Of a stretch of 64,000 bases of DNA, positions 41,552-59,839 are shown piece by piece. The notes under the pieces are model-generated. The model saw nothing but the letters and a program-made list of their open reading frames with translations, searched no databases and was not told the DNA's origin. Location: NCBI GenBank assembly GCA_046330075.1, contig JAXLTL010000001.1, positions 652,481 to 716,480 on the forward strand, given 5' to 3'. Origin of the DNA: Bacteroidia bacterium. GTDB lineage: Bacteria; Bacteroidota; Bacteroidia; AKYH767-A; OLB10. The stretch's first letter is position 1; every line of letters starts with the position of its first letter. Position numbers and translations under genes: made by a program.

Positions 41552-44500
41552 ATGCATAAGTTGCTCAAGCGCCAGCTTGAAAAATATTTTGGCTCAGCCT
41601 TACCCGATCATCAGGGATTTGACGCTTTTATTAAAGCAGTCAACGAGGTATATCATGAGGATGAAAAGCGGTTAAAGAATCTTGAAAACATCATTGAAGT
41701 TTCTTCGGACGAGGCAAAAGCGGAAGTTGACAATATTCGTTTTGCCATTGAAGAAGCGAGCCTGGTAGCGGTCATTGGCAGAAACGGTAGAATTTCTTCA
41801 GTAAATAAAAATCTCCAGAAGCTCACCGGTTTACAAGCAGAAGATTTTATCAATAAAACAGCGCTTGAAATTGCGGGTCCCGAACAGGAAGAACTCATCA
41901 CGCGGGCAATCCGCAGAGCCACCGCTGGAAATATCTGGCAAGGTGAAATATTTGTAAAAACCAGAAAGGGTAACTTAATCTGGCTGAATGGAACCGTTAC
42001 TCCACTCAAAGATGCGCATGGGATTATTACACGTTATCTGGCCATTCTGCACGATACAACTGCCCGAAAGCTTTTCGAAAATGAAATAATCACCAGTGAA
42101 AAGAAGTATAGAAGTGTCATCAACAGTGTCCACGACATTATTTTTCAAGCCGACAAAAATCTCGAATTCACCTTTCTCAACTCCGCCTGGAAGGAAATAA
42201 CAGGATTTAACATTGAAGACGGTTTAGGAAGCCGACTGGTAGATTATATCTATGCCGAAGATCTCTCCATTTTTAACCGGTTGCTAAATAGCATACAGTC
42301 CTTTGATATCAATTCCGGATCAACCGTACTCAGGCTTAAACCGAAAACAGGGCAATACCGATGGGTAGACTTTAACCTCAAACCCAATTATCAGCCGGGA
42401 GGAGCTATAAACTCATTCTCCGGAACGATCCGTGATGTTACTGAAAGCAGAAGAAACGAAGAATTGCTGGCCAGATCCAACGCCTTCCAACGGGCTCTTC
42501 TGAACTCAGCAAGGCAAGCCATCATTGCAACCGATGAAAGCGGCATAATAAAAACGTTCAACAAGGGTGCAGAAAAGATGACCGGCCACCTGGCAGAAGA
42601 TGTTATTGGCCTTACTTCTGTTGACAAACTTTTGATTTTTGATGCACCCTTCACCAATCATATCAATCTCGGAGAATTGCTTTCTTCTCTTAACCAACAG
42701 CGCAATGGAGAAATTGAATGTCATCTGAAGACAACCTATTCAAAAAGTTTGATTGTTTCACTCTCTATGAGTGAAATAGCAGATGATAAAGCAAATGGCA
42801 CCGGTTATTTATTTATTTTCAGTGATATCAGTTCTCGAAAAGAAGCTGAAACCGAGGTCAGAAAATTAAGCACTATACTGGAGGAATCTCCTGATTATGT
42901 CAGTTACTATGACATGACAGGTGAAATGATTTATGCAAACAAGGCATTCAAAGAAATCAGATATGATCAACAAAATGAATGCAAGTATGAATTATACCCT
43001 GCATGGGCAGAGCTTATCATCAGAAGAAAGGCAATCCCCTATGCCATGGAAAACGGTGCATGGAAGGGAGAAACTGCCATACTTGACAAAGACGGAAATG
43101 AGATTCCTGTCCATCAGCTGATCATCATCCACCGCAATGAAGAAGGCACAGCCATTTTCAGGTCATCTGTAATGCGTGATATTACTCAGCGAAAAAAATA
43201 CGAATACAAACTACTGCAGAGTGAAAAACGCAACCGCGACCTTGTTAATTATAGTCAGGCTATTATAGCCACCCATGATCTGGGCGGAAAGATTTTAAGC
43301 ATAAATCCTGCCGGCTGTAACCTCCTGGAATATGACCTTGAAGAGATGGTGGGAAAAAACATCATGGATTTCATGCCGGCCTCTCATCGTGAACTTTTCC
43401 AAACCGAATATCTGGGCTTATTCAAAAAATCAAAAACTGCTGAGGGAATTTTATACCTGCTCAGTAAAAGCGGGCAGCAACTCAGTCTGCTTTACAAGAA
43501 CTATAAAGTTGATGAAGCCGGCGAAGAATCCTACATCATTGGATTCGCGCAGGACATTACACAACGACTGCTTGCAGAGGCAGAACTTAAAACCGCAAAA
43601 CTTTCGGCTGAAGAAAGCGCGCGAGCGAAAGAGCTGTTCCTTGCCAATATGTCCCACGAAATCCGGACACCGATGAATGGAATTGTCGGACTTACAAATC
43701 TGCTCTTAAAATCTCCTTTAAACGATAAACAAAAGGAATATGCATCTTCTGTTAAGCAAAGTGCGGAAAATCTGCTGGTAATCATTAATGCCATTTTGGA
43801 TTTCAGTAAAATCCAGGCAGGTAAATTTGAAATTACCAAGAAACCATTTGATCTGGCAAATCTGTTTTACAATCTGCGACAGACCTTCAGAGTAGAAGCA
43901 CAACGAAAAGGAATCGAACTTCAAACCTCCATTGACGACAATATCCATCAGATACTGAACGGAGATGAAATCCGGCTGAATCAGATTATTTCTAATCTTG
44001 TCAGCAACGCTTTAAAGTTTACTGAAAACGGCAAGATTTCACTGGCAGCTCGTTTGCTCAACCAAACAAACGAAGCCTGCAGATTACGTTTCAGTGTTAC
44101 GGATACAGGTATTGGGATTGCACCGGAAAAACTGGATAAAATCTTCAACAGCTTCACACAGGCTAATTCAGATACAAGCAGAAAATATGGTGGCACCGGC
44201 CTTGGACTCACCATTGTAAAAAACATGCTTGAACTGATGGGTGGCCGCATCCATGTAAAAAGCGAACCGGGCAGCGGATCCACCTTCTTCTTTGATCTGA
44301 ATCTCGAAAAAGCACATCGCCTGATTGAAGATCAGCAAGTACACGAAGAAGATTACAGCGGAAAACTCAAAGGCTTGCGTATCCTGATGGCAGAAGACAA
44401 CAAAGTCAACCAGCTTTTTGCATCAGAATTGATTCAAGACTGGGGAGCCAGTCTTGATATTGCCGATAATGGTAAGCTGGCCGTAGAAATGGCCCGAAAG

Positions 44501-45199
44501 AATGAATACGATTTAATTCTGATGGACATTCAGATGCCGGAAATGAGCGGCCTCGATGCTACGCATTATATACGAAATGAATTCAAAGGTCCGAAGAAAG
44601 ACATTGTCATCATTGCTATGACAGCAAATGCCATGAAAGGAAACGAGGAACAATATGGCAAAGCAGGAATGAATGATGTAATTTTCAAACCATATGAATC
44701 AGCCGAACTCTTTACAAAAATCAAGAGGTTCACTAAAGTTAAGGATTCAGGGTCCGCAAAAGAGAAAAAACACACCACTCCGGTTGCTGAGCACTTAGAT
44801 TCTGTTCCGACTCCAGTAAATGATCTGTCCTTAAAGCATGCCAGTATGCACGTATTAACTGCCTTTTCACGTGGAAAAGACAGCTTCATCGTTAAAATGC
44901 TGACAGTACTTATTGAAAGCGTTCCTCCGACTAGCATAGAATTAAACGATTCAATCCGGCATGGCAATTGGGAAAAAGTTGTCAAAGCAGCCCATAAACT
45001 CATCCCCAATATGAATATGATGGGGAACCCCGGGCTTGAAAAAAGCATGAAATGGATTGAAGATCAAGCCAATGTAGAAGCTTCCCGAAAAGCTGTCAGT
45101 GAACTATGGCCATCGGTAGCACAAGAACTTGAACTGGCCGTAAAGGACCTTCATACCGCACTAAAATTCTATCAGGCCAGAGAAACATCTGCAAAATAA
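41552..45199 (+). CDS. cytoplasmic hybrid sensor histidine kinase: multiple PAS domains, HisKA, HATPase, receiver, C-terminal Hpt
   Basis: No TM. Repeated PAS-like blocks. H-box ANMSHEIRTPMNGI. N, G1 and G2 boxes (ISNLVSNALKFT; DTGIGIAPE; GGTGLGLTIV). Receiver (LRILMAEDNKVNQ...LILMDIQMPEMSG...KPY). An Hpt-like helical C-terminus. Start taken at the ATG at 41552 (MHKLLKRQ); the track begins at a TTG at 41543. Confidence 0.9.
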   Translation: MHKLLKRQLEKYFGSALPDHQGFDAFIKAVNEVYHEDEKRLKNLENIIEVSSDEAKAEVDNIRFAIEEASLVAVIGRNGRISSVNKNLQKLTGLQAEDFINKTALEIAGPEQEELITRAIRRATAGNIWQGEIFVKTRKGNLIWLNGTVTPLKDAHGIITRYLAILHDTTARKLFENEIITSEKKYRSVINSVHDIIFQADKNLEFTFLNSAWKEITGFNIEDGLGSRLVDYIYAEDLSIFNRLLNSIQSFDINSGSTVLRLKPKTGQYRWVDFNLKPNYQPGGAINSFSGTIRDVTESRRNEELLARSNAFQRALLNSARQAIIATDESGIIKTFNKGAEKMTGHLAEDVIGLTSVDKLLIFDAPFTNHINLGELLSSLNQQRNGEIECHLKTTYSKSLIVSLSMSEIADDKANGTGYLFIFSDISSRKEAETEVRKLSTILEESPDYVSYYDMTGEMIYANKAFKEIRYDQQNECKYELYPAWAELIIRRKAIPYAMENGAWKGETAILDKDGNEIPVHQLIIIHRNEEGTAIFRSSVMRDITQRKKYEYKLLQSEKRNRDLVNYSQAIIATHDLGGKILSINPAGCNLLEYDLEEMVGKNIMDFMPASHRELFQTEYLGLFKKSKTAEGILYLLSKSGQQLSLLYKNYKVDEAGEESYIIGFAQDITQRLLAEAELKTAKLSAEESARAKELFLANMSHEIRTPMNGIVGLTNLLLKSPLNDKQKEYASSVKQSAENLLVIINAILDFSKIQAGKFEITKKPFDLANLFYNLRQTFRVEAQRKGIELQTSIDDNIHQILNGDEIRLNQIISNLVSNALKFTENGKISLAARLLNQTNEACRLRFSVTDTGIGIAPEKLDKIFNSFTQANSDTSRKYGGTGLGLTIVKNMLELMGGRIHVKSEPGSGSTFFFDLNLEKAHRLIEDQQVHEEDYSGKLKGLRILMAEDNKVNQLFASELIQDWGASLDIADNGKLAVEMARKNEYDLILMDIQMPEMSGLDATHYIRNEFKGPKKDIVIIAMTANAMKGNEEQYGKAGMNDVIFKPYESAELFTKIKRFTKVKDSGSAKEKKHTTPVAEHLDSVPTPVNDLSLKHASMHVLTAFSRGKDSFIVKMLTVLIESVPPTSIELNDSIRHGNWEKVVKAAHKLIPNMNMMGNPGLEKSMKWIEDQANVEASRKAVSELWPSVAQELELAVKDLHTALKFYQARETSAK

Positions 45200-45230
45200 C
45201 CTCCGTATAAGAAATACCCCACAAAAGAAT

Positions 45231-45611
45231 ATGAAAAAGCAAATCCTGGTAGTAGACGACGAATTAAGCATTCGAATGTTGCTTGAAAATTTCCTTTCAG
45301 ATGAATATGATGTCATCACAAAGGATAATGGATATGAAGCCATGACATGGTTCCAGGAAGGAAACACTGCAGACCTTATCCTGGTGGACATTGACATGCC
45401 CATGGTAAACGGATATGAACTCACTGAAAACATCCGTAAGCAAGCCGGCATGGAGAAAGTTCCGGTGATCATGCTTTCCAGCAAACAGAAAAGCTCCGAC
45501 CGTATCAAATCATTTAACGTAGGCGCTGATGATTACCTTCAAAAACCATTCAATCCGGAAGAGTTGATGGTTCGTATTCAGGTAATCTTTCGTAGAATGA
45601 CAGCTGCATAA
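45231..45611 (+). CDS. single-domain response regulator (CheY-like receiver)
   Basis: ILVVDDELSIRMLLE...LILVDIDMPMVNG...IMLSS...YLQKPF: all canonical receiver residues are present. Confidence 0.85.
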   Translation: MKKQILVVDDELSIRMLLENFLSDEYDVITKDNGYEAMTWFQEGNTADLILVDIDMPMVNGYELTENIRKQAGMEKVPVIMLSSKQKSSDRIKSFNVGADDYLQKPFNPEELMVRIQVIFRRMTAA

Positions 45612-45628
45612 AAATTTTCAGCCCCCAT

Positions 45629-46765
45629 ATGAAAATTGTTTACATCAACCCTTCAATCGAACAACAGGACCTGTTTAAAAGTGCCTTCACCCGGCATGAG
45701 GTAGTCTGTTTCAATGATTTATTCAGCGGTTTCCAATGGATGCGACAGGACAATTTTCCTGACATCCTCATTTCAGAGATAGATCCGGTTATAGATCCGA
45801 GCAATGATACTATGAAAATCATTCGCTCAAAGCCGGCTTTCCGCAAAACAATTATCATCGGATATTCGCAGAAGCCCGACCGCAGTAAGCTCAATCAATA
45901 TCTGAATGATGGATATCTCGACATTGTTCCAACTGAAAAAGTAACTACAACCGTATTTCAGGTTATACAGCTGTTCAGCCAGAAACATGGTCAGAATTCA
46001 CTAAGCTCACTCTATAGCAGAAGAAGCCTTATCGCAAAACGGCTACTTGACATAGGAATATCATCCACTGCCTTATTACTGGCCTCTCCGGTACTGCTGG
46101 GTGCAGCCATAGCCATCCGGCTTGAATCAAAGGGCCCTATTTTCTACCGATCCAAACGAGTTGGATCCAACTATAAAATTTTCGATCTTCTAAAGTTCCG
46201 CACAATGATACCGGATGCAGACAAGAAGATAGACAAGTTAGGTCATTTAAATTTATACTCCGGTGGAGATGCTATAGAAGTACCAGAGGAATGTCCGGAC
46301 TGCAAACGACTGGGTAAATCCTGCTCGCCAATGATGTATGCTGACAACAAGCAAATCTGCGAGAATTTTTATTTTTTCCTCCAGGATATGGAAAAGCAAG
46401 GAATATTCTTCAAGGCAAAAGATGATCCCCGGATATCAAAGGTTGGTAAATTCTTACGCAACTCTTCTATCGATGAATTACCACAACTGATTAACATTCT
46501 CAAAGGAGATATGTCACTGGTTGGAAATCGTCCGCTTCCTCTGTACGAAGCCGAAATGCTGACTACCGATTCAAGGGCATTCAGATTTCTTGCTCCGGCC
46601 GGCCTGACCGGGCTATGGCAGGTCACGAAACGAGGCAAAAAAGATATGTCGGAAGAAGAAAGGATCGCACTGGACAATAATTATGCTTTAAACCACTCCC
46701 TGTTGCTGGACATAAAAATTATTCTCCGCACCTTCCCTGCCCTCTTCCAGAGTGAAAACGTGTAG
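45629..46765 (+). CDS. polyprenyl-phosphate glycosyl-1-phosphate transferase (bacterial sugar transferase, WbaP/PglC-like catalytic domain) fused to an N-terminal degenerate receiver-like domain
   Basis: C-terminal block: re-entrant helix ISSTALLLASPVLLGAAIAIRL, PIFYRSKRVG, KFRTM, DPRISKVGKFLRNSSIDELPQLINILKGDMSLVGNRP. The N-terminal ~120 aa align with the adjacent response regulator but have NP instead of the DD pair. Confidence 0.8.
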   Translation: MKIVYINPSIEQQDLFKSAFTRHEVVCFNDLFSGFQWMRQDNFPDILISEIDPVIDPSNDTMKIIRSKPAFRKTIIIGYSQKPDRSKLNQYLNDGYLDIVPTEKVTTTVFQVIQLFSQKHGQNSLSSLYSRRSLIAKRLLDIGISSTALLLASPVLLGAAIAIRLESKGPIFYRSKRVGSNYKIFDLLKFRTMIPDADKKIDKLGHLNLYSGGDAIEVPEECPDCKRLGKSCSPMMYADNKQICENFYFFLQDMEKQGIFFKAKDDPRISKVGKFLRNSSIDELPQLINILKGDMSLVGNRPLPLYEAEMLTTDSRAFRFLAPAGLTGLWQVTKRGKKDMSEEERIALDNNYALNHSLLLDIKIILRTFPALFQSENV

Positions 46766-47594
46766 TATGATGAATGGTGAAGAAAAGAAGAACAGACAAT
46801 ACTTACTCCTCCTGCTGATCAGCCTGATTGCAAAGATTTGCAATGCACAAACTCAGGATGAGGTAAGCGCATTTCCCTACGTTGATATAAACAGCAAACC
46901 GGCTTTTAACCTTTCAGACTCATCATTAACCAGAATTGACCTTAATAAAGAGCTAGTTGATCAATTTGTTCCTATCGACAGCCTGATCAAAGTTGCTATT
47001 GCCAATAGTCCTACCGTGCAGGCTCAGGATGCCTTGATTGAAGCCAGTAAAGACCAGATTAAGTTTGCACGACGTGAATGGCAAAACGGAGTATCCGGAT
47101 TTTTCAGTGAGTCACTCGGCAATCAAACGTTGTTCTATGATTCCAATCAGGACCTGAACACGGTACAGTCACAAAGCCTGCAAACCGGTTACCGGTTAGG
47201 GCTCAATATAAACGTTCCACTTTTCCTGCTCTTTGGACGTACCAGTCGAATCAACGTTTACCAGCATGAACGTGAAGTAAGGGAAAAAACAGGAGAAAAA
47301 ATCCAATTGGATGTATCCCGGCAGGTCATATCGGAGTATAACAGCATGTTATCGGCCCATAGAATCCTGCTCCTGGCAGCTAAAAGCCGCGGAACTTCCC
47401 GTATGCTTCAGGACATGGCTGACAAACAATTCGCACAGGGAGATCTCTCCATTGCGGATTATTCGTCAGTAGCTGCCATTACATCGAAAGCAGAACAGGA
47501 TTATGAAATCGCAAGAAGCAATTTCTACAATACTTACCTGTCGCTGGAGAAATTGCTGGGCGTACGACTTGATACATTGGTGAGGAAAAAGTGA
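46752..47594 (+). CDS. half-size TolC-like outer-membrane efflux protein (single OEP repeat, 280 aa)
   Basis: Signal LLLLLISLIAKICNAQ, then LIKVAIANSPTVQAQDALIEASKDQIKFARREW... and a single helix-barrel-helix repeat. Overlaps the upstream gene by 14 nt and the downstream gene by 4 nt. Confidence 0.6.
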   Translation: MKTCSMMNGEEKKNRQYLLLLLISLIAKICNAQTQDEVSAFPYVDINSKPAFNLSDSSLTRIDLNKELVDQFVPIDSLIKVAIANSPTVQAQDALIEASKDQIKFARREWQNGVSGFFSESLGNQTLFYDSNQDLNTVQSQSLQTGYRLGLNINVPLFLLFGRTSRINVYQHEREVREKTGEKIQLDVSRQVISEYNSMLSAHRILLLAAKSRGTSRMLQDMADKQFAQGDLSIADYSSVAAITSKAEQDYEIARSNFYNTYLSLEKLLGVRLDTLVRKK

Positions 47595-49777
47595 CCCTGC
47601 TGGAATTTATACGACTACTTGCACGACACTGGAAAGCGCTCGTGATATTTCCGTTAATGACGGCAGGTGTAGTTTTTTATCTCACCCGAAACACCAAGAA
47701 AGAATACGTTTCCAATACGCAGGTGTATACCGGTATCGCCAGCGGCTATGGTATCACCTCCGGCGAAAACGACCGGGTAGATTATTTTGCTGTCAACAAT
47801 GCCTTCGACAACCTGATGGCAACCATCAAATCCCGTGAAACGCTCGAGGAAGTTGGTATGCGACTGCTTGCAAAGCATTTGCTGATCGAAAAACCTTCCT
47901 ACAAAGACCTCTCTCCTGAAAATTTTGATCATATCCGGGAAGCACTGCCGGAAAAACTGCGCAAGAAACTCATTGTGAAAGGGTCAGAAGAACTGACCTT
48001 TTTCCGCATTGAAAGCTATAAGCGGGCATCTGAAAACAATGAAATCATTGAATTGCTTTCGGCGCCCTCCAGTATTTACAGTGTAGATGTTATCAGCTCC
48101 AACATGAATCCGCAAAGGAAACAGTCGAGCGATATGATCGAAATTTCATACAAATCCAACGACCCTGCAGTCTGTCAGCAAACACTTCAAACCATTGTCA
48201 ATGTCGTAATCACCCGTTACAAAGGAATTAAAGGAGCTGAAACCAGCAATGTTGTCAAGTACTTTGAAGAACAATTAAATCAGGCTGCAGGCAGGTTACG
48301 CAAATCAGAAGACCGGCTCCGGGATTACAGTTCAGAAAATAAAATCATCAACTTTTACGAGCAGGCAAAATTTGTAGCGAACTCCAAGGAGAATGTTATC
48401 AGCGACAAGCAAAAGCAGGAAGAATCACTTGAAGCATCGAAAGCTTCACTATCGAAAATTGAGCAGAAAATCGACATCAAGAAAAACATCCTTGAGATCA
48501 ACGAAAATCTGACGAAACTACGCGAACAATTATCTGAAGTTACCTATAAAATAGCCAACGCCGAATTATACAACGAAGATGCCGGACAGCTTGACACCTA
48601 CCGAAAGGAATCAGACAGAATAAAGAAACAGATAAAAGAAGAAGTCAACAAGCAGTACAAGTGGAACAACACCCCTGAAGGACTTCCACGTGCCAATCTT
48701 CTGTCGGAATGGCTGGGCAGTTTTCTTGCAGTAGAAGAAAACCAGGCCAAGCTGGATGTAATCAACAAACGACTTAACAGTTTTGACGAACTATACAAGG
48801 AGATGGCCCCGGTAGGATCCAACCTGAAGAGAATAGAACGGGAAGTCGACATCAATGAAAAAGAATACTTAAGCATTCTCCATGGCCTTAACATGGCACG
48901 TTTACGTCAGCAAAGTCTGCAGATGTCAAATAATTTGTCGATCACCGATTATCCATTTCTCCCCTTGAAACCACAGCCATCAAAACGGGGAATGATGATC
49001 ATTATGGCTTTTCTGGCTACCTTTGTTTTGAGTCTCTCAGTAGTAGTGGGAAAATCATTTATCGGCAAAACCGTTCAGACGCCTGCCAGAGCAGAGAAAT
49101 TCACCAATCTCACCTTCCTGACTGCTTTCCCCGATTTCGACAAAATTGATACCCGGTTTAATATTGCTATGCTCCGGCAAAGCATTCTTGCTCATTTTAA
49201 CTCCACATTCTTCGCCAACAACAAAGAATCGCTTTCAGGAGACTCACTGCCTCCTGTGATCAGCATCAGCAGTATCAAAAAGGATGAGGGAAAAAGTTTC
49301 ATTGGAAAGATGATCTCCGGAAAATTCAGTGAAAGATTTAAACGGGTGCTGTATCTGAATCCGGAAATAATGCAAGGATTTCCTCCATCTGTAACTGTTT
49401 TCAATTATAGTAAATCTGAAACAGCATTTTCCGGGAATACCGTATATGACTGGTTAGACGCTATCGGAATAGAAATCCGGGAATACGACCTGATTCTTTT
49501 AGAGCTCGATGAATTAGGAAGATTTACACTCAATGATAACCTGATCAAAGGTATCCGAAGCCATTTATTTGTTGTTTCCTCAGAACGGGTCTGGTCAGAA
49601 GCTGACTCCAGAGCTTTATCACTCTTTACGAAAATGACGTCAACGCCTCCGATGGTGATTTTAAACCATATCGAAATTGACCGTCTTGAGGCCATTATCG
49701 GTGAACTACCGAAGCAACGCACGTTTGTAAGAAAAGCGATAAAACGAATAGTAACATTCAACTTTAAGCGGTCGTAA
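47591..49777 (+). CDS. polysaccharide co-polymerase (Wzz/GumC/Wzc-like), two TM, with a C-terminal domain that resembles a degenerate BY-kinase
   Basis: N-terminal TM ALVIFPLMTAGVVFYL. Long periplasmic coiled-coil. Second TM MMIIMAFLATFVLSLSVVVG. The C-terminal ~250 aa carry KDEGKSF where the Walker A PGEGKST is expected, and there is no terminal Tyr cluster. GTG start. Confidence 0.7.
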   Translation: MTLLEFIRLLARHWKALVIFPLMTAGVVFYLTRNTKKEYVSNTQVYTGIASGYGITSGENDRVDYFAVNNAFDNLMATIKSRETLEEVGMRLLAKHLLIEKPSYKDLSPENFDHIREALPEKLRKKLIVKGSEELTFFRIESYKRASENNEIIELLSAPSSIYSVDVISSNMNPQRKQSSDMIEISYKSNDPAVCQQTLQTIVNVVITRYKGIKGAETSNVVKYFEEQLNQAAGRLRKSEDRLRDYSSENKIINFYEQAKFVANSKENVISDKQKQEESLEASKASLSKIEQKIDIKKNILEINENLTKLREQLSEVTYKIANAELYNEDAGQLDTYRKESDRIKKQIKEEVNKQYKWNNTPEGLPRANLLSEWLGSFLAVEENQAKLDVINKRLNSFDELYKEMAPVGSNLKRIEREVDINEKEYLSILHGLNMARLRQQSLQMSNNLSITDYPFLPLKPQPSKRGMMIIMAFLATFVLSLSVVVGKSFIGKTVQTPARAEKFTNLTFLTAFPDFDKIDTRFNIAMLRQSILAHFNSTFFANNKESLSGDSLPPVISISSIKKDEGKSFIGKMISGKFSERFKRVLYLNPEIMQGFPPSVTVFNYSKSETAFSGNTVYDWLDAIGIEIREYDLILLELDELGRFTLNDNLIKGIRSHLFVVSSERVWSEADSRALSLFTKMTSTPPMVILNHIEIDRLEAIIGELPKQRTFVRKAIKRIVTFNFKRS

Positions 49778-49785: not shown

Positions 49786-51144
49786 GTGTTGAACTCCATA
49801 AAAAATCTGGCCCGCAACCGCCATACGTTGTCACTTGCCGGTAACGTAGTTAATGCGATACTGGGATTCGGAAGCATCGCATTGGTGGCCCGTCTTTTAA
49901 CCAAGGATGAAATGGGATCATGGATTATGTTCATGACCGCCTATATTTTTGCCGATTTACTACGCGCCGGAATTATCCACACTTCGCTCATCCGCTTTGC
50001 CGCATCCTCTGATGAACATCAGTTCAAAGTTGTATCAGGTTCCGGCTGGCTCATTTCTATTATCACCACACTTGTAATTTCGATCATCACCGTACTGATA
50101 GATGTAATTTTCGGACATTATATCACCAATCACGGTATTCAATTATTTCTTACCTGGTACTGGCTAGCTGCAATTACCACCCTGCCATTCAACTATGCTG
50201 CATGGCTTTTGCAAGCCAAATCATCATTTGAGAAGGTACTCTATATCCGATTACTGAACCAGCTGAGTTTTATCACCTGTATTCTGCTCGCTTTAATTAC
50301 TGACCATGCATCATCAGAAGTTGTTCTTACGGGCTTCATAATTTCCGGATTATTGCCCAGTGCAATTTCAGTATGGACCGGCTGGTCGATGGTGGGCACC
50401 GTGAAGTTTGCGACGCGGAATATGATGCGTGATTTATTCAATTTCGGAAAATTCAGCATGGGCACCCTGATGGGATCAAACCTGTTGAGAAGCTCTGACA
50501 CTTTGTTGATCGGGTTTCTGCTTGGGGCCAAAGAAGTTGCTAGTTATAGTATCCCGCTTAAACTTATTGAAGTTATAGAAATCCTGTTGCGCAGTTTTGC
50601 TGCCAGCGCCATGCCGGTAATGTCTAAATTCCGGTCGCCCGAACATAAGCAGGAACTCCGGCAGATGTATTACAAATACACCGGGCTGTTAACACTGATC
50701 TTACTTCCAATGATTGTCGGATGCATTTTATTTGCAGATTCTCTGGTTATCATTCTGGGTGGGGCTCAGTACGCTGAATCCGCAAATGTGCTCCGGATTC
50801 TGGCGGTTTATGCAGCTTTCCTTCCACTGGACCGGTTCAGCGGAATCACGCTTGACATTATCGGCAAGCCCTACCTTAACTTTCTTAAAGTAATTTTAAT
50901 GCTGCTGGTGAATGTAACCGGAGATGTGCTGGCTATCCATTATTTCGGTAACATTGGAAGCGTTGCTGTCGTATCAATACTCACGTTCCTGACCGGCGTG
51001 ATCTTCGGGAATTACTTCCTGAAAAAATATCTGCACCACCGGATTGTAGAAACCCTTCAAACTGGTTACTATTCGCTGTTGCACATTCTCCAACCGCTCA
51101 AGGAACGCATCAAAGCGTTAAAGGTTGGTAATCCCGCATCCTGA
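49786..51144 (+). CDS. Wzx-type oligosaccharide flippase (polysaccharide biosynthesis protein, MOP superfamily)
   Basis: About 12-14 TM; N-terminus LARNRHTLSLAGNVVNAILGFGSIALVARLLTKDEMG. Confidence 0.75.
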   Translation: MLNSIKNLARNRHTLSLAGNVVNAILGFGSIALVARLLTKDEMGSWIMFMTAYIFADLLRAGIIHTSLIRFAASSDEHQFKVVSGSGWLISIITTLVISIITVLIDVIFGHYITNHGIQLFLTWYWLAAITTLPFNYAAWLLQAKSSFEKVLYIRLLNQLSFITCILLALITDHASSEVVLTGFIISGLLPSAISVWTGWSMVGTVKFATRNMMRDLFNFGKFSMGTLMGSNLLRSSDTLLIGFLLGAKEVASYSIPLKLIEVIEILLRSFAASAMPVMSKFRSPEHKQELRQMYYKYTGLLTLILLPMIVGCILFADSLVIILGGAQYAESANVLRILAVYAAFLPLDRFSGITLDIIGKPYLNFLKVILMLLVNVTGDVLAIHYFGNIGSVAVVSILTFLTGVIFGNYFLKKYLHHRIVETLQTGYYSLLHILQPLKERIKALKVGNPAS

Positions 51145-52576
51145 TAATATCAATGTAAAAAACCTGCTGAAAGCAATCTTTATGGTGTTGCTTTCAGTTG
51201 TGCTCGGCATCACTTTTTATAAAGGTGGGGTTGCAGCGATGATTGGCCTTGCCTGTTTGCCTGTAGGTCTTGGATTCCTTGGTCTGATCGTTGCCCGTCC
51301 CAAAACCGGATTATGGACCATGTTTGCTTTTTCCTTTTTTGCAAACGGAATTACCAGATACATAGATGGCCCCTTTGGTTTGGGCGTAGACATCATCCTG
51401 CTCATCACGGCTCTTGGCATTTTGTTTCGCACCAAGGAAGACCTAAATGCTCCGTCCATCAAGAACCCTTTGATGCTCGGCATTCTGATCTGGTTTGGAT
51501 ATTGTGTTATAGAAATTGCCAACCCGGAAGCCAGAAGTATTGAAGCCTGGTTCTATGACATACGGGGTGTCTCACTGTATTTCGTTGCTACTGTCCCGCT
51601 TGCTTTTACTCTTTTGTATACAGAACAGGACATGGATCAATTTATTAAAATATGGTTCGGTATTTCCATTTTCGCAGCCGTTTGGGGTCTCAAACAGCTG
51701 TACTTCGGTATGGATTATGCAGAAAACAGATGGCTTGAAATGGGTGCAAAAAGCACGCATATACTCTTTGGGAAACTTCGCGTTTTTTCCTTTTACTCTG
51801 ATGCCGGACAATTTGGTGCTGCTCAGGCTCATACCGGTGTTGTTGCCGGAGTTTTGGCAATGGGGCCTTACTCAAGAAAAAGAAAGATCTTCTATATTAT
51901 CACCTGTTTGCTTTCACTATACGGAATGGCAATTTCCGGAACGCGTGGTGCATTATTCGTTGTCATCACTGGTTTTGCGATTTACTTTCTCCTTTCCAAC
52001 AATATGAAGATTGTTATTCCGGGTGCTATCGTTGGTATTCTTGCCTTTGGCATGTTGAAATATACAATGATCGGTCAGCAAAACGATCAGATCAGACGTA
52101 TGCGAACCGCCCTGGATCCTAATGATGCTTCTCTTCAGGCACGATTAAACAATCAGGCGAAACTGAAGGTATATCTGGCATCCCGGCCACTGGGAGGAGG
52201 GCTAGGCTCTGCCGGGTCCTGGGGGCAAAGATTCAGCCCCGGGACCTTTCTGGCTACTACTCCACTCGATTCCTGGTATGTAAAAATATGGGCAACTACA
52301 GGAGCCATAGGACTCACCATTTACCTGAGTATGCTGATCTATTTTCTTGCCAACAGATTTATCTTTCTTTTCAAGCTGAAAGACCCCGACCTTAAATTTA
52401 AACTGGCAGCATTTTACGGAGGATTTTTCGGAGTTTGCTTCGCCAGTTACGGGAACCAGATTTTTGGACAATTCCCAACCGGACCATGTATTTACATTTC
52501 GTTGGTTTATATGTTTCTGGGGGAAACCTTTGTGCGCAACCGGGCGTTAAATAAGCCGGATGAATCCCCAGTCTGA
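51125..52576 (+). CDS. O-antigen ligase / Wzy-like polymerase family membrane protein
   Basis: Polytopic, with a large periplasmic loop near the C-terminus (RGALFVVITGFAIYFLLSNN...). The true start may be the internal Met at 51182. Confidence 0.65.
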   Translation: MVIPHPDNINVKNLLKAIFMVLLSVVLGITFYKGGVAAMIGLACLPVGLGFLGLIVARPKTGLWTMFAFSFFANGITRYIDGPFGLGVDIILLITALGILFRTKEDLNAPSIKNPLMLGILIWFGYCVIEIANPEARSIEAWFYDIRGVSLYFVATVPLAFTLLYTEQDMDQFIKIWFGISIFAAVWGLKQLYFGMDYAENRWLEMGAKSTHILFGKLRVFSFYSDAGQFGAAQAHTGVVAGVLAMGPYSRKRKIFYIITCLLSLYGMAISGTRGALFVVITGFAIYFLLSNNMKIVIPGAIVGILAFGMLKYTMIGQQNDQIRRMRTALDPNDASLQARLNNQAKLKVYLASRPLGGGLGSAGSWGQRFSPGTFLATTPLDSWYVKIWATTGAIGLTIYLSMLIYFLANRFIFLFKLKDPDLKFKLAAFYGGFFGVCFASYGNQIFGQFPTGPCIYISLVYMFLGETFVRNRALNKPDESPV

Positions 52577-53477
52577 ACAACCGCTAGTTTCCATCGTCAG
52601 CATCAATTATAATGGTGCACGGGTAACCTGTGAAATGCTTGAATCACTCAAGCAGATCACCTATCCTAATATTGAGGTCATCATTGTAGATAACGCGAGC
52701 GCTGAAGACCCATCTCTGATCACCAAAGAACATCCATGGATCACCTTTATCCGCAGCGAAAAAAACCTTGGCTTTGCAGGAGGAAACAACCTGGGATTTA
52801 ACGCCGCCAAAGGCAAATACTTTCTGATGCTCAACAACGACACAGAAGTGGAACCAGGTTTTATTGAACCATTGATTGCTCGTTTTGAAAATGACAGCTC
52901 CGTCGGGGCCGTATCACCTAAAATCATTTTCCATCATAGTCCTGGAATCATCCAGTTTGCCGGTTTCAATCCTATTAATCCATATACAGGAAGAGGTACA
53001 GCTATCGGCTTTGGTGAAAAGGATAATGGACAATACAACGAATCTCATGCAACCAGCAGAGCACACGGTGCAGCCATGATGGTTTCCCGAAAACTGGTTG
53101 AAGAAATCGGACTTATGGCTGATCTCTTCTTTCTGTATTACGAAGAGATGGATTACTGTGAACGTATAAAACGGGCCGGATATTCTATCTGGTATGAAGC
53201 CGCCTCAACCATCTATCACAAAGAATCGATCTCAACCGGTAAAGGAAGCACTTTAAAGACCTACTATCTGACACGAAACCGCCTTTTGTACCAACGCAGA
53301 AATGTGAAAGGTTTAAGGCTTTTTGTCAGCATCATTTTCTTTCTGATTGTATCTATACCAAAGAACACCCTTCAGTATCTCCTGAAAGGCAAAACTGACA
53401 TGCTCAAAGCCTTCTGGAAAGGAGTGCTCTGGAACATTACCGCTAAAGACATCCATCGCAATGAATCCTTAATCTGA
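52560..53477 (+). CDS. glycosyltransferase family 2
   Basis: VSIVSINYNGARVTCEMLESLKQITYPNIEVIIVDNAS, then FLMLNNDTEV (DxD). Confidence 0.85.
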   Translation: MNPQSEQPLVSIVSINYNGARVTCEMLESLKQITYPNIEVIIVDNASAEDPSLITKEHPWITFIRSEKNLGFAGGNNLGFNAAKGKYFLMLNNDTEVEPGFIEPLIARFENDSSVGAVSPKIIFHHSPGIIQFAGFNPINPYTGRGTAIGFGEKDNGQYNESHATSRAHGAAMMVSRKLVEEIGLMADLFFLYYEEMDYCERIKRAGYSIWYEAASTIYHKESISTGKGSTLKTYYLTRNRLLYQRRNVKGLRLFVSIIFFLIVSIPKNTLQYLLKGKTDMLKAFWKGVLWNITAKDIHRNESLI

Positions 53478-53483
53478 TACGTT

Positions 53484-54668
53484 ATGGCCGTACTCGACAT
53501 TCTGTTCATCGTAATCTTCCTGCTCTGTGTTCCTACAGTAGCATACTTCCTGTTCTTCTCTGTCGCCGGTCATTTCTACCGGTCCAGGGCGTATGGAAAC
53601 AAGGATACCTACAAAAAAATTGCAGTACTCATGCCGGCTTATAAGGAAGATGCCGTAATTCTTCTTACGGCCAAGCAAGCGCTCTTACAGCAATACCCTT
53701 CCCACCGATATGATGTATATGTCATTGCCGACTCACTTCAGGATGCCACGATAACTGATCTGAAGAAGCTTCCTTTGCAGGTAATTCAGGTATCTTTTGA
53801 TGTAAGTACGAAAGCAAAAGCACTTAACGAAGCATTCCGTCAGATCAACAGGCCCTATGATCTGGCTGTCATCCTCGATGCTGACAATGTAATGATGCCG
53901 GATTTCCTCGATAAAGTAAACAAAGCCGCTGTTTCCGGATGCTATGCTATACAAGGACATCGTGCAGCGAAAAACAAGAATACCGGATATGCTATTCTTG
54001 ACGCCATCAGTGAAGAGGTAAATAATCATATAATGCGTAAGGGACAGGTTGCAGTAGGCCTGTCGAGTGCCGTTATCGGCTCCGGAATGGCTTTTTCCTA
54101 TCTGTACCTGAAGCAGGTGATGTCAGAAATTGAAGCTGTTGGCGGATTTGACAAGGAACTGGAAATGACACTGATTGATGACAATCACAAAATCACATAT
54201 CTCGACGACGCAATTGTACTAGACGAAAAAGTTCAACAATCCGAAGTTTTTGCGAATCAACGCACACGTTGGGTAGCCGCACAAATGATTTATCTCCGTA
54301 AATACTGGTTCAAAGGACTGATGAATTTACTTATTGGCCGCGTGGATTATGCCAATAAAGTGATGCATTATGCTTTAGTGCCCAAGGTCATTTTACTAGG
54401 CACTATCGGTTTTATGGCGCTATTGAATCTCCTTCTTCCGGATGCTGGTCCGGGGTTCATTTCATGGGTACTCCTGGGACTTGCTTACGTCGGATCATAT
54501 GCAATTGCAATTCCGCGTGCTTACTGGAACAAAGACTTGTTTTATGCCATCATGAGTCTGCCACGTACTGTACTGATCATGTTCGGTGCCATGTTCAAAA
54601 TCAAAGGCGCCAACAAACGATTTATCCATACCCCACATACAGCACAATTCGAAAAAACCACCATTTAA
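53484..54668 (+). CDS. membrane-embedded synthase-like glycosyltransferase family 2 (DxD plus QxxRW)
   Basis: N-terminal TM, AVLMPAYKED, ILDADNVMMPDF, QRTRW, and C-terminal TM helices. Confidence 0.75.
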   Translation: MAVLDILFIVIFLLCVPTVAYFLFFSVAGHFYRSRAYGNKDTYKKIAVLMPAYKEDAVILLTAKQALLQQYPSHRYDVYVIADSLQDATITDLKKLPLQVIQVSFDVSTKAKALNEAFRQINRPYDLAVILDADNVMMPDFLDKVNKAAVSGCYAIQGHRAAKNKNTGYAILDAISEEVNNHIMRKGQVAVGLSSAVIGSGMAFSYLYLKQVMSEIEAVGGFDKELEMTLIDDNHKITYLDDAIVLDEKVQQSEVFANQRTRWVAAQMIYLRKYWFKGLMNLLIGRVDYANKVMHYALVPKVILLGTIGFMALLNLLLPDAGPGFISWVLLGLAYVGSYAIAIPRAYWNKDLFYAIMSLPRTVLIMFGAMFKIKGANKRFIHTPHTAQFEKTTI

Positions 54669-54677
54669 CGCAGCCCC

Positions 54678-55820
54678 ATGCCGTTTAAAAAAATAAAAGT
54701 ACTCGAAACCATCCGCCAAGGACAAATTGGCGGAGGAGAATCACATGTTCTTGACCTTGTTAAAGGAATGAACAAAGATGAATTTGAACCCATTGTACTA
54801 TCGTTCACCGACGGACCGATGGTTGACCGATTAAAAGACATGGGTATTAAAACGCATGTAGTTGAAACATTACGTCCATTCAATCTGACTACCTATAATG
54901 CGGTCAAAGAAATACTGAAGAATGAGGAAATTGACATTCTTCATGCTCATGGAACGAGAGCCCTGAGCAATACTGTATTTCCGGCTAAATCACTTGGCTT
55001 ACCGATCGTATATACCGTCCACGGATGGTCATTTCATCAGGACCAGCCTTTTCACATTCGCAGAATGCGAGAGCTTTCGGAAAAATTTCTGACCGACCAG
55101 GTAAATGTTACCATCAGCGTTTCACAATCGAACCAACGGGATGGCATCGAGCGTTTTCACATGAAGCGCAGCCGTGTCATAAACTACGGTATAGATCTTT
55201 CACGTTACAATCCCGACAAACCGATGCATGACCTGCGGGGAGAGCTGGGAATTGAACCCGGCAAAACAGTAGTGGGTTACCTCGTGAGAATGACTATTCA
55301 AAAAGATCCGTTCACACTGATCCGTGCGGTAGCTGAAGTTGCGAAAACCACTCGCGACATTCAGTTCCTGTTTATCGGAGACGGAGACCTCAAACAAGCC
55401 AGCATCGATCTTGCCAGAGAATTAAACGTTTCGGACATGATCAAATTTCATGCATTCAGAACAGACATTCCGGAGGTCCTGAACACGTTTGACATTTATA
55501 CACTTCCATCACTCTGGGAAGGATTACCCATTGGAATGCTGGAAGCGATGGCCATGCGCAAAGCAGTAATAGCGACTCCCGTAGATGGCTCCAAGGAAGC
55601 CATCAGAGAAGGACAAAACGGCATGCTTGTTCCCTGCAAAAATCCGGAAGCATTGGCAGAAGCCATACTCCGGTTACATCATAGCAAGGAAATGAGAAAT
55701 GTTCTCGGTGAAAATGCCCGCGATACCGTGGAGAAAATATTCGACGTTAGAATGATGGTCAGAAATAACGAGAATCTGTACAGAGAATTACGGCCCAACT
55801 TCTCAAGGGCAGCAGCATAA
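54678..55820 (+). CDS. glycosyltransferase family 4 (GT-B)
   Basis: EX7E region PSLWEGLPIGMLEAMAMRKAVIAT. Confidence 0.85.
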   Translation: MPFKKIKVLETIRQGQIGGGESHVLDLVKGMNKDEFEPIVLSFTDGPMVDRLKDMGIKTHVVETLRPFNLTTYNAVKEILKNEEIDILHAHGTRALSNTVFPAKSLGLPIVYTVHGWSFHQDQPFHIRRMRELSEKFLTDQVNVTISVSQSNQRDGIERFHMKRSRVINYGIDLSRYNPDKPMHDLRGELGIEPGKTVVGYLVRMTIQKDPFTLIRAVAEVAKTTRDIQFLFIGDGDLKQASIDLARELNVSDMIKFHAFRTDIPEVLNTFDIYTLPSLWEGLPIGMLEAMAMRKAVIATPVDGSKEAIREGQNGMLVPCKNPEALAEAILRLHHSKEMRNVLGENARDTVEKIFDVRMMVRNNENLYRELRPNFSRAAA

Positions 55821-55825
55821 ATAAA

Positions 55826-57034
55826 ATGCGAATAGGTATTGAAGCATTCCGGATTTTCCGGAGAAACAAGCATGGGATGGACATTGTGGCGCAGGAGACT
55901 GTTAAACGGCTGCAATACCTCGACAAGCTCAACACCTATTTTCTTTTTTGCTTTGACGACCAGGAAGGATACCACCTGCAGGAATCGGAAAATTTTAGAA
56001 TTATCCGTATTCCCAGGGCACCATCTCCAATTGTAGAACAGTTTCTCCTGCCGTTACTGGCATTACGATACAGGATAGATCTGTTCCATTCCACCGGCAA
56101 CACATCGCCTTACTTCCTTCCCTGCAAAAGGCTGGTAACACTCCACGACATCATTTATCTTGAAAAAAACGATCACCTGAAAGGCGGCTCCCTGTATCAA
56201 CGAATCGGCAAACAGTACAGGCGGTTGATTGTTCCGAAAATCGTAAGAAAAGCCGATGGGTTAATAACGGTGTCACAAAATGAACAACAGATCATACTTG
56301 ACCGATTACCGGAATTGCAGGGTCGTCTGACAGTAGTCGCAAATGCTGTATCAGGGCACTTTATGCCCAAACCCGCCGAAACAACATTATCGGTAAGTCT
56401 GAAATACAAGCTACCCAACCAACCATTTATATTTTTCCTTGGCAATACAGATCCTAAAAAAAACACGGTCAATGTTTTGAAAGCGTATCATCGCTACATC
56501 CTTAAATACGGCCATACACTTAAACTGGTGATCGCTGACATCTCACGTGCAAATGTTCACCGGCTGATCGAAAAACATCAGCTCACAGAAATCAAGGAAC
56601 ATGTGTATCTGACGAACTATGTGAGGCATGAAGACATGCCCGACATTTACAACCGGGCCCGTTTGTTTCTATATCCGTCTCTGCGGGAGAGTTTCGGTCT
56701 GCCAATTCTGGAAGCTATGGCTTGCGAAACACCCGTAGTAACTTCCGGTAGTCATGCTATGCCGGAAACTGCAGGAAATGCTTCCTTGCTGGTCAACCCG
56801 GAAGATCCATCATCGATTGCTGAAGCAATACACATTGTTCATACGGATGAAGCAACGCGACATCGTCTGATTCAGCTGGGCAAACAAAGAATCCTAGACT
56901 TTAACTGGAATCAATCCATCCAGAATCTTCTTAAAATTTACAAAGCCATTTGTGATGGAGAAAGCGTTAAATCAGTGGTCATCGAGCCTATCATAAGAAG
57001 AAATAAAAAAGGCCAGCCTGTTTACACCGGCTGA
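55826..57034 (+). CDS. glycosyltransferase family 4 (GT-B)
   Basis: YPSLRESFGLPILEAMACETPVVTS. Confidence 0.85.
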   Translation: MRIGIEAFRIFRRNKHGMDIVAQETVKRLQYLDKLNTYFLFCFDDQEGYHLQESENFRIIRIPRAPSPIVEQFLLPLLALRYRIDLFHSTGNTSPYFLPCKRLVTLHDIIYLEKNDHLKGGSLYQRIGKQYRRLIVPKIVRKADGLITVSQNEQQIILDRLPELQGRLTVVANAVSGHFMPKPAETTLSVSLKYKLPNQPFIFFLGNTDPKKNTVNVLKAYHRYILKYGHTLKLVIADISRANVHRLIEKHQLTEIKEHVYLTNYVRHEDMPDIYNRARLFLYPSLRESFGLPILEAMACETPVVTSGSHAMPETAGNASLLVNPEDPSSIAEAIHIVHTDEATRHRLIQLGKQRILDFNWNQSIQNLLKIYKAICDGESVKSVVIEPIIRRNKKGQPVYTG

Positions 57035-57061
57035 CCTGCTTCTTCCCTTAACAATATTTTT

Positions 57062-57835
57062 CTACCAGGTACGGCGCCAAGCGGTATTGAATCCGCTGGC
57101 CATAACTGAAGGCAGATAATCAATCACTGTATTATCCAGTTTCGATAATGCTTTCACATGGCGTGTAAGCATTGAATAGGGAAACACTTTTTCAACAAAA
57201 TTTGAATGCCCAAACTGGAGAAGATCAAATCCGTGCCGTTTGATCAGGTTGATGATGGCATGTTTGGTAAAAAACTGAACATGGGTAAGATCTTCACTTT
57301 GACTTTGAATGGTACTGTTGCTATATCCCAGAGCCTTCTTGGATGAGTTAATAATGTTACCCATCCAGCTCTTTGACATTTTCTGCACGGGGCGAGTCAC
57401 CAGAAGTTCACGGGGTCCGACTCCATTCGGTACCGTCGCAATTAAAATTGCACCCGGACGAAGTATTTTTGCGATAGTGGTCATTAATCCATCCGGATTA
57501 TGCAAATGTTCCAATACCTCGCTGCAAATAATAGCATCAAACTGATCACCATCAGTAACCTGCTCTGCGCTGCAAACCCTGAATTCCACATTTGGAAGAG
57601 AGTTCTTTGAACGAGCATAGCGGATTGCATTTTCACTAAAATCAATACCGGTGACCTGATATCCAAGGCTACCTATCCCGCGAGCAATATTACCGTTCCC
57701 GCAGCCAATATCAAGGACTTTCGCCCCAGGCTGACAATAGGTTTGAATGACTTCCGCGATGAAGTTGAGTCGTTTAATATCAACAACCTCCGTAAACTCG
57801 GTGTATTTGCCGATATTGATTGTGCTTTTTTTCAT
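57062..57835 (-). CDS. class I SAM-dependent methyltransferase
   Basis: Motif I KVLDIGCGNGNIARGIGSLGYQVTGIDFSENAI; motif II DAIICSEVLEHL. Confidence 0.8.
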   Translation of the reverse strand: MKKSTINIGKYTEFTEVVDIKRLNFIAEVIQTYCQPGAKVLDIGCGNGNIARGIGSLGYQVTGIDFSENAIRYARSKNSLPNVEFRVCSAEQVTDGDQFDAIICSEVLEHLHNPDGLMTTIAKILRPGAILIATVPNGVGPRELLVTRPVQKMSKSWMGNIINSSKKALGYSNSTIQSQSEDLTHVQFFTKHAIINLIKRHGFDLLQFGHSNFVEKVFPYSMLTRHVKALSKLDNTVIDYLPSVMASGFNTAWRRTW

Positions 57836-57844
57836 AAGATTATA

Positions 57845-59834: not shown

Positions 59835-59839
59835 TCCCT

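Follow-up and report, generated by a model that had tools for sequence, protein, structure and literature searches.

A pseudo-receiver-fused phosphoglycosyl transferase paired with a free response regulator and a phosphorelay kinase in a Bacteroidota polysaccharide cluster

The 64,000-nucleotide stretch of contig JAXLTL010000001.1 (Bacteroidia bacterium, assembly GCA_046330075.1) analysed here, hereafter the window, contains a Wzx/Wzy-type polysaccharide cluster headed by three genes, which respectively encode a hybrid histidine kinase, a stand-alone single-domain response regulator and a phosphoglycosyl transferase (PGT) with a receiver-like N-terminal domain, the predicted priming enzyme of the pathway. 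Domains such as Hpt, receiver and Bac_transf were assigned by Pfam and NCBIfam profile scans of the translated open reading frames (ORFs). The features of this trio are the following:

41552..45199, plus strand: hybrid histidine kinase (ORF; Pfam and NCBIfam domains; synteny in loci L001 and L008 at 80-86% identity)
41774..43588, plus strand: PAS sensor region, residues ~75-679, 4-6 repeats (Pfam PAS_9/PAS/PAS_4/PAS_3 in 3-5 stretches; TIGR00229 in 6 stretches)
43625..44308, plus strand: HisKA and HATPase_c core, H-box His702 at 43655-43657 (Pfam HisKA 71.5 bits, HATPase_c 109.2 bits)
44381..44722, plus strand: internal receiver of the kinase (Pfam Response_reg 80.6 bits)
44897..45154, plus strand: C-terminal histidine phosphotransfer (Hpt) domain, phosphotransfer His1148 at 44993-44995 (AAHKLIPNMNMMG)
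45231..45611, plus strand: stand-alone single-domain response regulator, 126 amino acids (aa) (Pfam Response_reg 101.7 bits)
45629..46765, plus strand: predicted pseudo-receiver-fused small monotopic PGT, priming enzyme, 378 aa
45629..45988, plus strand: predicted N-terminal pseudo-receiver of the PGT, residues 1-120 (N7-P8; Glu50 at 45776-45778; Ser80 kept, Lys lost)
46019..46126, plus strand: long amphipathic or hydrophobic helix, residues 131-166, with invariant Ser153-Pro154 (helix in the AlphaFold2 (AF2) model; conservation; hydrophobicity maximum at residues 144-166)
46037..46747, plus strand: Bac_transf catalytic domain with the Asp282-Glu283 dyad (46472-46477) and a four-Cys insertion

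In the ORF list the receiver gene begins 31 nucleotides (nt) past the kinase stop and the transferase gene 17 nt past the receiver gene, in keeping with the three ORFs and spacings given in a preliminary description of this DNA. The kinase start is ambiguous: the ATG at 41552 gives 1215 aa, and the 1218 aa of that description correspond to a TTG at 41543. The downstream genes for an OEP-like protein, Wzz, Wzx, Wzy and four glycosyltransferases abut or overlap and are co-directional with the trio up to 57034. That the relay genes go with the transferase that primes a Wzx/Wzy pathway, also proposed earlier, is borne out. Upstream, the synteny of peptidase, methyltransferase and KdsA genes is retained in relatives with an 80-86% identical transferase, and the closest named records among the matches listed are metagenome-assembled genomes of Bacteroidia and Bacteroidota. 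The trio and its neighbours are genuine genes of an uncultured Bacteroidota lineage. A Pfam scan found no DNA-binding domain anywhere in the trio, as had been stated, and no DNA-binding regulator, including the sigma-54 NtrC type, was found within 10 kb upstream; between window positions 31001 and 58000 no receiver was detected besides those of the trio.

Pfam assigns the kinase HisKA, HATPase_c and Response_reg domains behind four to five PAS domains. Its His702 sits within the motif SHEIRTP, and the internal receiver is canonical (E948-D949, D992 at 44525-44527, T1024 and K1046). With a maximum Kyte-Doolittle 19-residue mean of 1.26 the protein has no hydrophobic segment and is therefore cytoplasmic, as the preliminary description held. 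On the window kinase by itself the Hpt domain scores below the Pfam cut-off (17-18 bits vs 24.6). A profile of 13 aligned Hpt regions from the window clade and its relatives matches solved Hpt domains (3myf at 1.9e-8, BarA 3iqt at 5.9e-7) and further the LuxU, ArcB and YPD1 structures, down to 1e-2. Ten of these 13 members are themselves Pfam Hpt matches at E<=0.01, and the phosphotransfer His, within AHK(L/I)(K/I)P, is invariant across the alignment (His1148 in the window kinase). The Pfam match and this clade profile uphold the receiver and the C-terminal Hpt that the kinase had been credited with, and with HisKA, HATPase_c, receiver and Hpt in succession it has every feature of a hybrid kinase of the multi-step phosphorelay type. 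In this it resembles the ArcB, BarA, TorS and LuxQ/LuxU relays, in which HisKA-HATPase-receiver-Hpt modules are followed by a separate terminal receiver, and the NCBIfam alignments of the window kinase to BarA, TorS, ArcB and LuxQ span these relay domains. Its scores are, however, far below the relay equivalog cut-offs (e.g. BarA, 399 vs 890) and, unlike in the ArcB, BarA, TorS and LuxQ systems, the sensor is a soluble multi-PAS array and the terminal regulator lacks a DNA-binding domain.

The stand-alone regulator consists of a receiver domain only (the Response_reg match covers residues 5-116), with a complete active site made up of D9, D10, D53 (45387-45389), S83 and K105-P106. Its best NCBIfam matches are the receivers of RpaB, PhoB and OmpR, and by sequence its receiver resembles the OmpR/PhoB type. 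The trio thus retains the relay residues and catalytic cores of a full multi-step phosphorelay that lacks a transcriptional output domain, which agrees with the earlier account.

In the third protein the Bac_transf domain (Pfam 193.9 bits, residues 137-373) is preceded and partly overlapped by the only hydrophobic segment of the chain. Across 75 sequences S153-P154 and D282-E283 are invariant or nearly so; we take the former to be the break of a re-entrant membrane helix and the latter to be the catalytic dyad, with roles as in PglC. The Bac_transf core structurally matches PglC, and sequence and model together identify the transferase as a predicted small monotopic PGT of the PglC type. Features of the large monotopic PGTs (WbaP/WcaJ/EpsZ) were not found: there is no PF13727 match, the hydrophobic segment is single, and TIGR03022 and TIGR03023 stay below cut-off. 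The enzyme would transfer a sugar-1-phosphate to polyprenyl phosphate; no NCBIfam equivalog model reaches its cut-off on it, and none names its sugar. Relative to the Pfam profile the Bac_transf domain has an insertion of ~58 residues, which bears four conserved Cys in the pattern CPDC-x6-C-x11-C (Cys stretch at residues 222-244, window 46292-46360) and has an AF2 confidence of 55-83. The pattern suggests a zinc-binding or redox-sensitive element. It is present in 164/171 long and 26/26 short PGTs of the subfamily and is hence unrelated to the receiver fusion.

The N-terminal domain of the transferase, which the preliminary description had read as a receiver fold colinear with the adjacent regulator, gives no Pfam match in a scan of residues 1-139, even at E=10. 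Pfam thus returned the Response_reg, Bac_transf and PAS domains expected of the trio, with the Hpt below threshold and the N-domain unmatched. Full-length transferase homologues at 45-50% identity bear PF00072 together with PF02397, an AF2 model from 75 homologues runs from beta1-alpha1 to beta5-alpha5 over residues 2-120 with a predicted local distance difference test score mostly of 83-93, and in BLASTP the stand-alone regulator matches the N-domain colinearly over 78 residues (25.8 bits, E=6e-5). These three lines of evidence uphold that reading and show a receiver fold. A WbaP-type or CoA-binding domain, which had been named as the alternative for this end of the protein, is seen neither in the Pfam scan nor in the AF2 fold, and the WbaP structure 8t53 aligns to the transferase via the catalytic domain only.

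Within this fold Asn7-Pro8 replace the acidic pair, Ser80 (IIGYS) is retained and the beta5 Lys is lost (Val100-Pro101). The earlier reading of NP in place of DD and of the Ser in IIGYS was right; the Asp of ISEIDP, which it offered as phospho-acceptor, is not at the acceptor position. Three alignments (BLASTP, family and HMM (hidden Markov model)) concur in placing Glu50 (LISE) in the acceptor column and Asp52 (EID) at acceptor+2, and together with the beta3 position in the AF2 model they rule out Asp52 as the acceptor. With Glu50 at this site, no acidic pair and no Lys, the fused domain is a pseudo-receiver that is predicted to be incapable of phosphorylation. When the window N-domain was searched by phmmer against 1.84 billion representatives only 8 matches were recovered, which implies that the window-type pseudo-receiver is a narrow, fast-evolving clade.

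The evidence that links the free and the fused receiver comes from a scan of one genome per species (185,579 species genomes) and of metagenomes by ORF and HMM scripts, with extra loci from context look-ups. Membership in the PGT subfamily was set at a catalytic domain score of at least 200 bits against that of the window transferase. The genome scan gave at least 599 matches to the subfamily, fused and short forms pooled, and the genome and metagenome scans yielded 159 loci with a callable PGT gene. Among the loci analysed, this subfamily shows three layouts of what is otherwise one OEP/Wzz/Wzx/Wzy/glycosyltransferase cluster. In layout A the PGT is short (241-244 aa) and without an N-domain, and an upstream stand-alone receiver is found in 0/5 loci (L011, L016, L032, L085 and L087). 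In layout B the receiver fused to the PGT has all canonical residues (DD or ED, D, S and KPFNPEE), as in Sediminitomix flava P0122 and Algivirga pacifica P0132, and an upstream stand-alone receiver is found in 0/7. In layout C, to which the window belongs, a degenerate fused receiver is accompanied in 91/91 loci by a canonical receiver gene of 120-140 aa directly upstream, with a gap of -4 to about +30 nt (typically -4 to +20 nt) between the receiver gene and the PGT; this count covers the loci with upstream sequence, and the counted loci share ancestry. A Fisher test of 91/0 vs 0/7 gives p=7e-11, uncorrected for phylogeny. The taxa covered include Dyadobacter, Sediminibacterium, Mucilaginibacter, Pedobacter, Cyclobacterium, Chitinophagaceae, Lentimicrobiaceae and Bacteroidales, and a KSB1 bin. 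A metagenome scan seeded on canonical fusions gave for the most part further layout-C loci and unrelated PGT subfamilies; 13 layout-C loci and no new canonical ones were added by it.

These sequence counts support the view that the linkage of receiver and PGT is kept far above chance. All 77 distinct stand-alone receivers are canonical, with acceptor Asp, Ser/Thr and Lys-Pro all present, and the fused receivers of layout B reach 107-167 bits when scored with an HMM that derives from the layout-C stand-alone receivers only, which indicates one receiver family, fused or free. Such an alternation constitutes a Rosetta-stone-type argument for a functional link between receiver and enzyme. The degenerate N-domains score higher on the stand-alone-regulator HMM than on an HMM of the kinase receivers of the same loci in 170/172 cases (median 27.6 bits vs 11.8, the two HMMs differing in depth); this is weak evidence that the pseudo-receiver arose by duplication of its partner receiver. 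The complementary distribution of free and fused canonical receivers argues that it is through the pseudo-receiver that the enzyme depends on the free receiver.

Three loci deviate from or add to this picture. In L053 (9938-11170) an ORF for a canonical receiver, which scores 146 bits on the regulator HMM, is followed after 9 nt by a 259-aa PGT without an N-domain. Either a frameshift or an assembly error has broken up a canonical fusion here, or the locus represents a fourth layout with a free regulator and a short PGT. L009 is a frameshifted copy of the window layout, and L005 (CAZHSC010000020.1), titled 'uncultured Bifidobacterium sp.', holds the whole kinase-regulator-PGT-OEP-Wzz block with a PGT 78% identical to that of the window; the bin is probably mislabelled.

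The full catalytic set is present in 0/160 distinct layout-C N-domains, and in a recount all 91 regulator-paired N-domains were degenerate. The acceptor column of the 160 holds Glu in 79, Asp in 34 and another residue in 47, with Glu in 86/141 in the recount. As Glu is the commonest residue at this column, and as Asp-to-Glu replacement activates some response regulators (e.g. NtrC D54E), Glu50 might be held to mimic phospho-Asp, so that the enzyme would be constitutively 'on' and independent of any signal, with the two-component genes regulating something else or persisting through operon inertia. We regard this as very improbable: about a quarter to a third of the family has neither Glu nor Asp at the column (Q, P, H, G or N), the metal-binding pair and the Lys for acyl-phosphate readout are gone, and the presence of an intact canonical regulator at 91/91 loci, in groups as far apart as Dyadobacter and Lentimicrobiaceae, points to selection acting on regulator and PGT together.

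The input genes are far less constant than this pair. A kinase lies directly upstream in 16/78 layout-C loci and within 10 kb in 27/78, which rules it out as an obligatory partner; the Hpt-bearing hybrid kinase, whose constant presence the preliminary description had raised as a question, is in this respect unlike the free receiver. The window-type PAS-Hpt kinase is confined to the window's own clade, and elsewhere the inputs are small HisKA-HATPase-receiver proteins (L003, L010, L033 and L042), PAS kinases next to H-NOX or FIST genes (L004, L087, L090 and L173), or a separate 111-112 aa Hpt protein directly ahead of the receiver (L038, L051 and L070; of these proteins the two scanned score 28.6 bits in L038 and 36.7 bits in L051 on Pfam Hpt). 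This combination of a variable kinase with a constant receiver and PGT indicates that the latter two are the conserved core and that the sensors are interchangeable. In L038, L051 and L070 the gene order is Hpt, regulator, PGT, and in L171 a stand-alone Hpt gene precedes a canonical receiver-PGT fusion; that Hpt stands directly ahead of the acceptor receiver in both layouts, free and fused, supports a relay to that receiver.

The order in L171 could also be taken in favour of a proposal, made in part in the preliminary description, that the Hpt acts on the transferase directly, with the pseudo-receiver as its docking site or Asp52 as its phosphorylation site, and that the free receiver serves as a side branch, as a competitor or as a sink for phosphate. 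Receiver folds are in general bound by Hpt domains, and around the acceptor position the window N-domain retains acidic residues (E50 and D52) as well as Ser80. Yet the fused receiver of L171 is fully canonical and that of the window is not, and the loss of the metal-binding pair and of the Lys makes phosphorylation of Asp52 chemically implausible. No N-domain among the 160 carries the full catalytic set, all 91 that are paired with a regulator are degenerate, and it is the free regulator, rather than the Hpt kinase, that is the invariant neighbour. Docking of the Hpt on the pseudo-receiver is accordingly unsupported, and we consider a direct action of the Hpt on the enzyme decidedly improbable.

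Some loci show further signalling genes around the pair. Sigma-54 NtrC-type response regulators are found nearby in L038 (7389-9087), L055 (1690-3063), L059 (7336-8721), L070 (3-1619) and L090 (6485-7831), and in L038 and L070 such a regulator precedes the small Hpt gene directly ahead of the regulator-PGT pair; this gene content suggests that in the loci so equipped the relay forks, with one arm leading to transcription and the other to the enzyme. H-NOX (HNOB) genes adjoin a PAS hybrid kinase in L090 (1-2567) and L173 (1-1315), an HNOBA segment lies inside the kinase of L016 (6270-9848), and FIST-domain genes are frequent neighbours (L004, L087 and L090), which hints that NO or O2 sensing may feed the polysaccharide switch in some lineages.

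Based on these observations we propose, with a confidence only a little better than even, that in the window a His-Asp-His-Asp relay ends on the free receiver and that the latter acts on the PGT, probably via the pseudo-receiver. The soluble PAS kinase would autophosphorylate on His702, and the phosphate would pass via Asp992 and then His1148 to its end point, Asp53 of the free 126-aa regulator; all four residues and both catalytic cores are intact. Lacking an output domain, the regulator must exert its effect through contact with another protein, and its most likely target would be the priming PGT encoded 17 nt downstream. The pseudo-receiver would be the most likely docking partner, in a receiver/pseudo-receiver heterodimer formed possibly via the alpha4-beta5-alpha5 face used by OmpR/PhoB-type receivers; a heterodimer is preferred because receivers commonly pair and because the regulator's receiver resembles this type. 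Its formation would switch the catalytic domain, so that the use of undecaprenyl phosphate and the initiation of the polymer would be gated after translation. The specificity of phosphotransfer, the physical contact of regulator and PGT, its interface and its sign, activation or inhibition, are what we infer. More tentative is the fuller form of this proposal, which we put at somewhat less than an even chance: that a phosphorylation-dependent heterodimer of regulator and pseudo-receiver is an allosteric switch of the PGT, which originated when an ancestral fused receiver was duplicated and the fused copy inactivated, and which operates Bacteroidota-wide with interchangeable sensors.

Several points weigh against a regulator that acts on the PGT through the pseudo-receiver. 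The counted loci are not phylogenetically independent, and no natural triple fusion of regulator, receiver and PGT was found among the best 120 database hits, a search that turned up canonical-receiver fusions. The N-domain is poorly conserved outside its core residues and the window clade lacks the alpha5 Arg retained by 90% of distant relatives, so that there is no evident conserved docking surface. The full-length AF2 model has a predicted template-modelling score of 0.46 and leaves the packing of the N-domain and the catalytic domain undefined. Small monotopic PGTs have been reported as monomeric (PMC12802240, Discussion), for which reason a promotion of dimers of the kind proposed for the large PGT EpsZ, discussed below, may not transfer to them.

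Adjacency, moreover, shows a functional link and not a target, and the regulator could act on the co-polymerase, the flippase or elsewhere. In its strongest form this objection holds that the free regulator addresses another component (the Wzz-like protein, Wzx/Wzy or a distant transcription factor) or is a phosphate sink or connector, that the pseudo-receiver is merely a structural, dimerisation or localisation domain, and that control is mainly transcriptional or exerted on polymerisation and export. The NtrC-type regulators of the five loci named above indicate that transcriptional control exists in the family, the regulator gene is co-transcribed with the entire export machinery and not with the PGT alone, and pseudo-receivers often serve as scaffolds. 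On such an account, however, it is left unexplained why the free regulator occurs only with a degenerate fused receiver (91/0 vs 0/12), the downstream OEP, Wzz and Wzy genes are identical in kind across all three layouts, and the window has no DNA-binding regulator in the 10 kb upstream. We consider another target unlikely; like the direct action of the Hpt, it is weakened mainly by the pairing rule and the variable kinase.

Action of the regulator on the PGT is supported by a precedent. In Myxococcus xanthus the single-domain response regulator EpsW, when phosphorylated, binds the PGT EpsZ and activates it post-translationally (Schwabe et al., mBio 2025, November; PMC12802240). As in that system, an output-less regulator gene lies in a Wzx/Wzy cluster beside the priming PGT, and the direct contact demonstrated for EpsW/EpsZ is what we propose for the window system. 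EpsZ is a large monotopic PGT with a four-helix membrane bundle, a PF13727-type domain and no fused receiver, for which promotion of the dimer has been proposed, whereas the window enzyme would be a small PglC-type PGT with a pseudo-receiver; EpsW is fed by the CheA-type kinase DifE, whereas the window regulator lies next to a hybrid kinase with an Hpt domain; and the two systems belong respectively to Myxococcota and Bacteroidota. On NF041866, the NCBIfam model of the EpsW family, the stand-alone regulator scores 81 bits, under the curated cut-off of 200, and is therefore not an EpsW orthologue. By its sequence the window system as a whole is likewise not an orthologue of EpsW/EpsZ: it appears similar in outline and distinct by the pseudo-receiver and the complementarity of free and fused receivers. 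We infer that the window PGT would be controlled in the EpsW/EpsZ manner, by direct binding and a change in activity. The principle of a response regulator acting on a priming PGT is thus already known, and the paired free and dead fused receiver is the variant.

Receiver-fused small PGTs as such have been catalogued in the sequence-similarity network of monotopic PGTs (O'Toole, Imperiali and Allen, PNAS 2021), as PMC12802240 relates, and the Discussion of the latter leaves their regulation open, small PGTs being monomeric. As far as that citing sentence describes them, the catalogued fusions are alike in having the receiver N-terminal to Bac_transf, and the relatives of the window protein show the corresponding PF00072 and PF02397. 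The preliminary description, whose author was aware of no characterised receiver-fused PGT, had allowed that the architecture might prove common and already annotated: common it is, judging by the pooled matches to the subfamily and by the best 120 database hits, most of which carry receiver and Bac_transf, yet it is labelled just 'sugar transferase', and a characterised receiver-fused PGT was not found in the literature searched. In the same literature, in which the 2021 network paper is represented by the sentence citing it, we found no description of the split into canonical and degenerate fused receivers, of the obligatory stand-alone partner or of the window clade below the Pfam threshold. 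Control of a small monotopic priming PGT after translation, through a signalling kinase, is proposed for the window and has a parallel in Staphylococcus aureus, whose small PGT CapM is activated when a kinase phosphorylates it, as mentioned in PMC10942596; CapM differs in that the regulatory kinase phosphorylates the enzyme directly and no receiver domain is involved.

Pseudo-receivers such as that of FrzS in M. xanthus and those of plant pseudo-response regulators, in which Glu takes the place of the acceptor Asp, work through protein-protein contacts and not through phosphorylation. Neither of these is known to be fused to a membrane enzyme or to have a same-family canonical receiver as genetic partner, and the window protein has both. 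How undecaprenyl phosphate is rationed among competing glycan pathways is an open question, to which EpsW~P/EpsZ provided the first mechanistic answer from two-component signalling in late 2025, and the authors of PMC12802240 expressly did not settle whether small PGTs come under the control of receiver domains. The window locus and about a hundred relatives constitute a natural experiment with three states (no receiver, a canonical fused receiver, or a free receiver with a dead fused one), which can be tested in the culturable Bacteroidota Dyadobacter, Pedobacter soli, Sediminibacterium ginsengisoli, Cyclobacterium, Sediminitomix flava and Algivirga pacifica. If the heterodimer exists it would represent a new output mode of two-component systems, in which a canonical receiver is read by a dead paralogue inside a membrane enzyme, and a further working mode of pseudo-receivers. 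It would also imply a Bacteroidota-wide rationing of undecaprenyl phosphate with PAS, H-NOX, FIST and small hybrid kinase sensors plugged in upstream, and would offer a handle on the production of biofilm and exopolysaccharide in an environmentally dominant phylum. Should the heterodimer model fail, the strict co-occurrence rule would still call for an explanation.

Behind the PGT gene the cluster continues as follows:

46752..47594, plus strand: half-size OEP/TolC-like protein (Pfam OEP 72.4 bits; the usual successor of the PGT in related loci)
47591..49777, plus strand: Wzz/GNVR-like polysaccharide co-polymerase, 728 aa (weak Pfam Wzz/GNVR; TIGR03007 55 bits; position conserved in relatives)
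49786..51144, plus strand: Wzx flippase (Pfam Polysacc_synt_3 and Polysacc_synt)
51125..52576, plus strand: Wzy polymerase (Wzy_C)
52560..61024, mixed strands: three GT2 and three GT4 glycosyltransferases, a methyltransferase and a hexapeptide acyltransferase (Pfam; these genes complete the repeat-unit pathway)

Beyond 57034 the methyltransferase and a GT4 gene lie on the minus strand, followed by the acyltransferase, a GT2 and a DUF4114/DUF4842 protein. Ahead of the operon the sole sizeable intergenic space is a 100-nt AT-rich gap between kdsA and the kinase gene (41443-41551). Scans around the genes for sigma-54 promoters, and for sigma-70-type promoters and terminators, gave counts at or below the shuffled expectation and are thus uninformative, as is a sigma-70-type promoter scan for Bacteroidota. 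A Wza/Poly_export gene is absent from the cluster; the PGT is followed instead by the OEP/TolC-like and Wzz/GNVR-like pair, with overlapping stop and start codons (the start of the OEP-like gene overlaps the PGT stop by 14 nt), and the same pair stands directly behind the PGT in most related loci. The DUF4114/DUF4842 protein (~690 aa, 61131-63200) recurs in L004 (5421-7481), a distant layout-C locus, and in L173 (1458-3521), which has a canonical fusion; it is possibly an accessory protein that the pathway has conserved. Towards its C-terminus the Wzz-like protein has the sequence SSIKKDEGKS, which appears to resemble a degenerate Walker A motif of BY-kinases.

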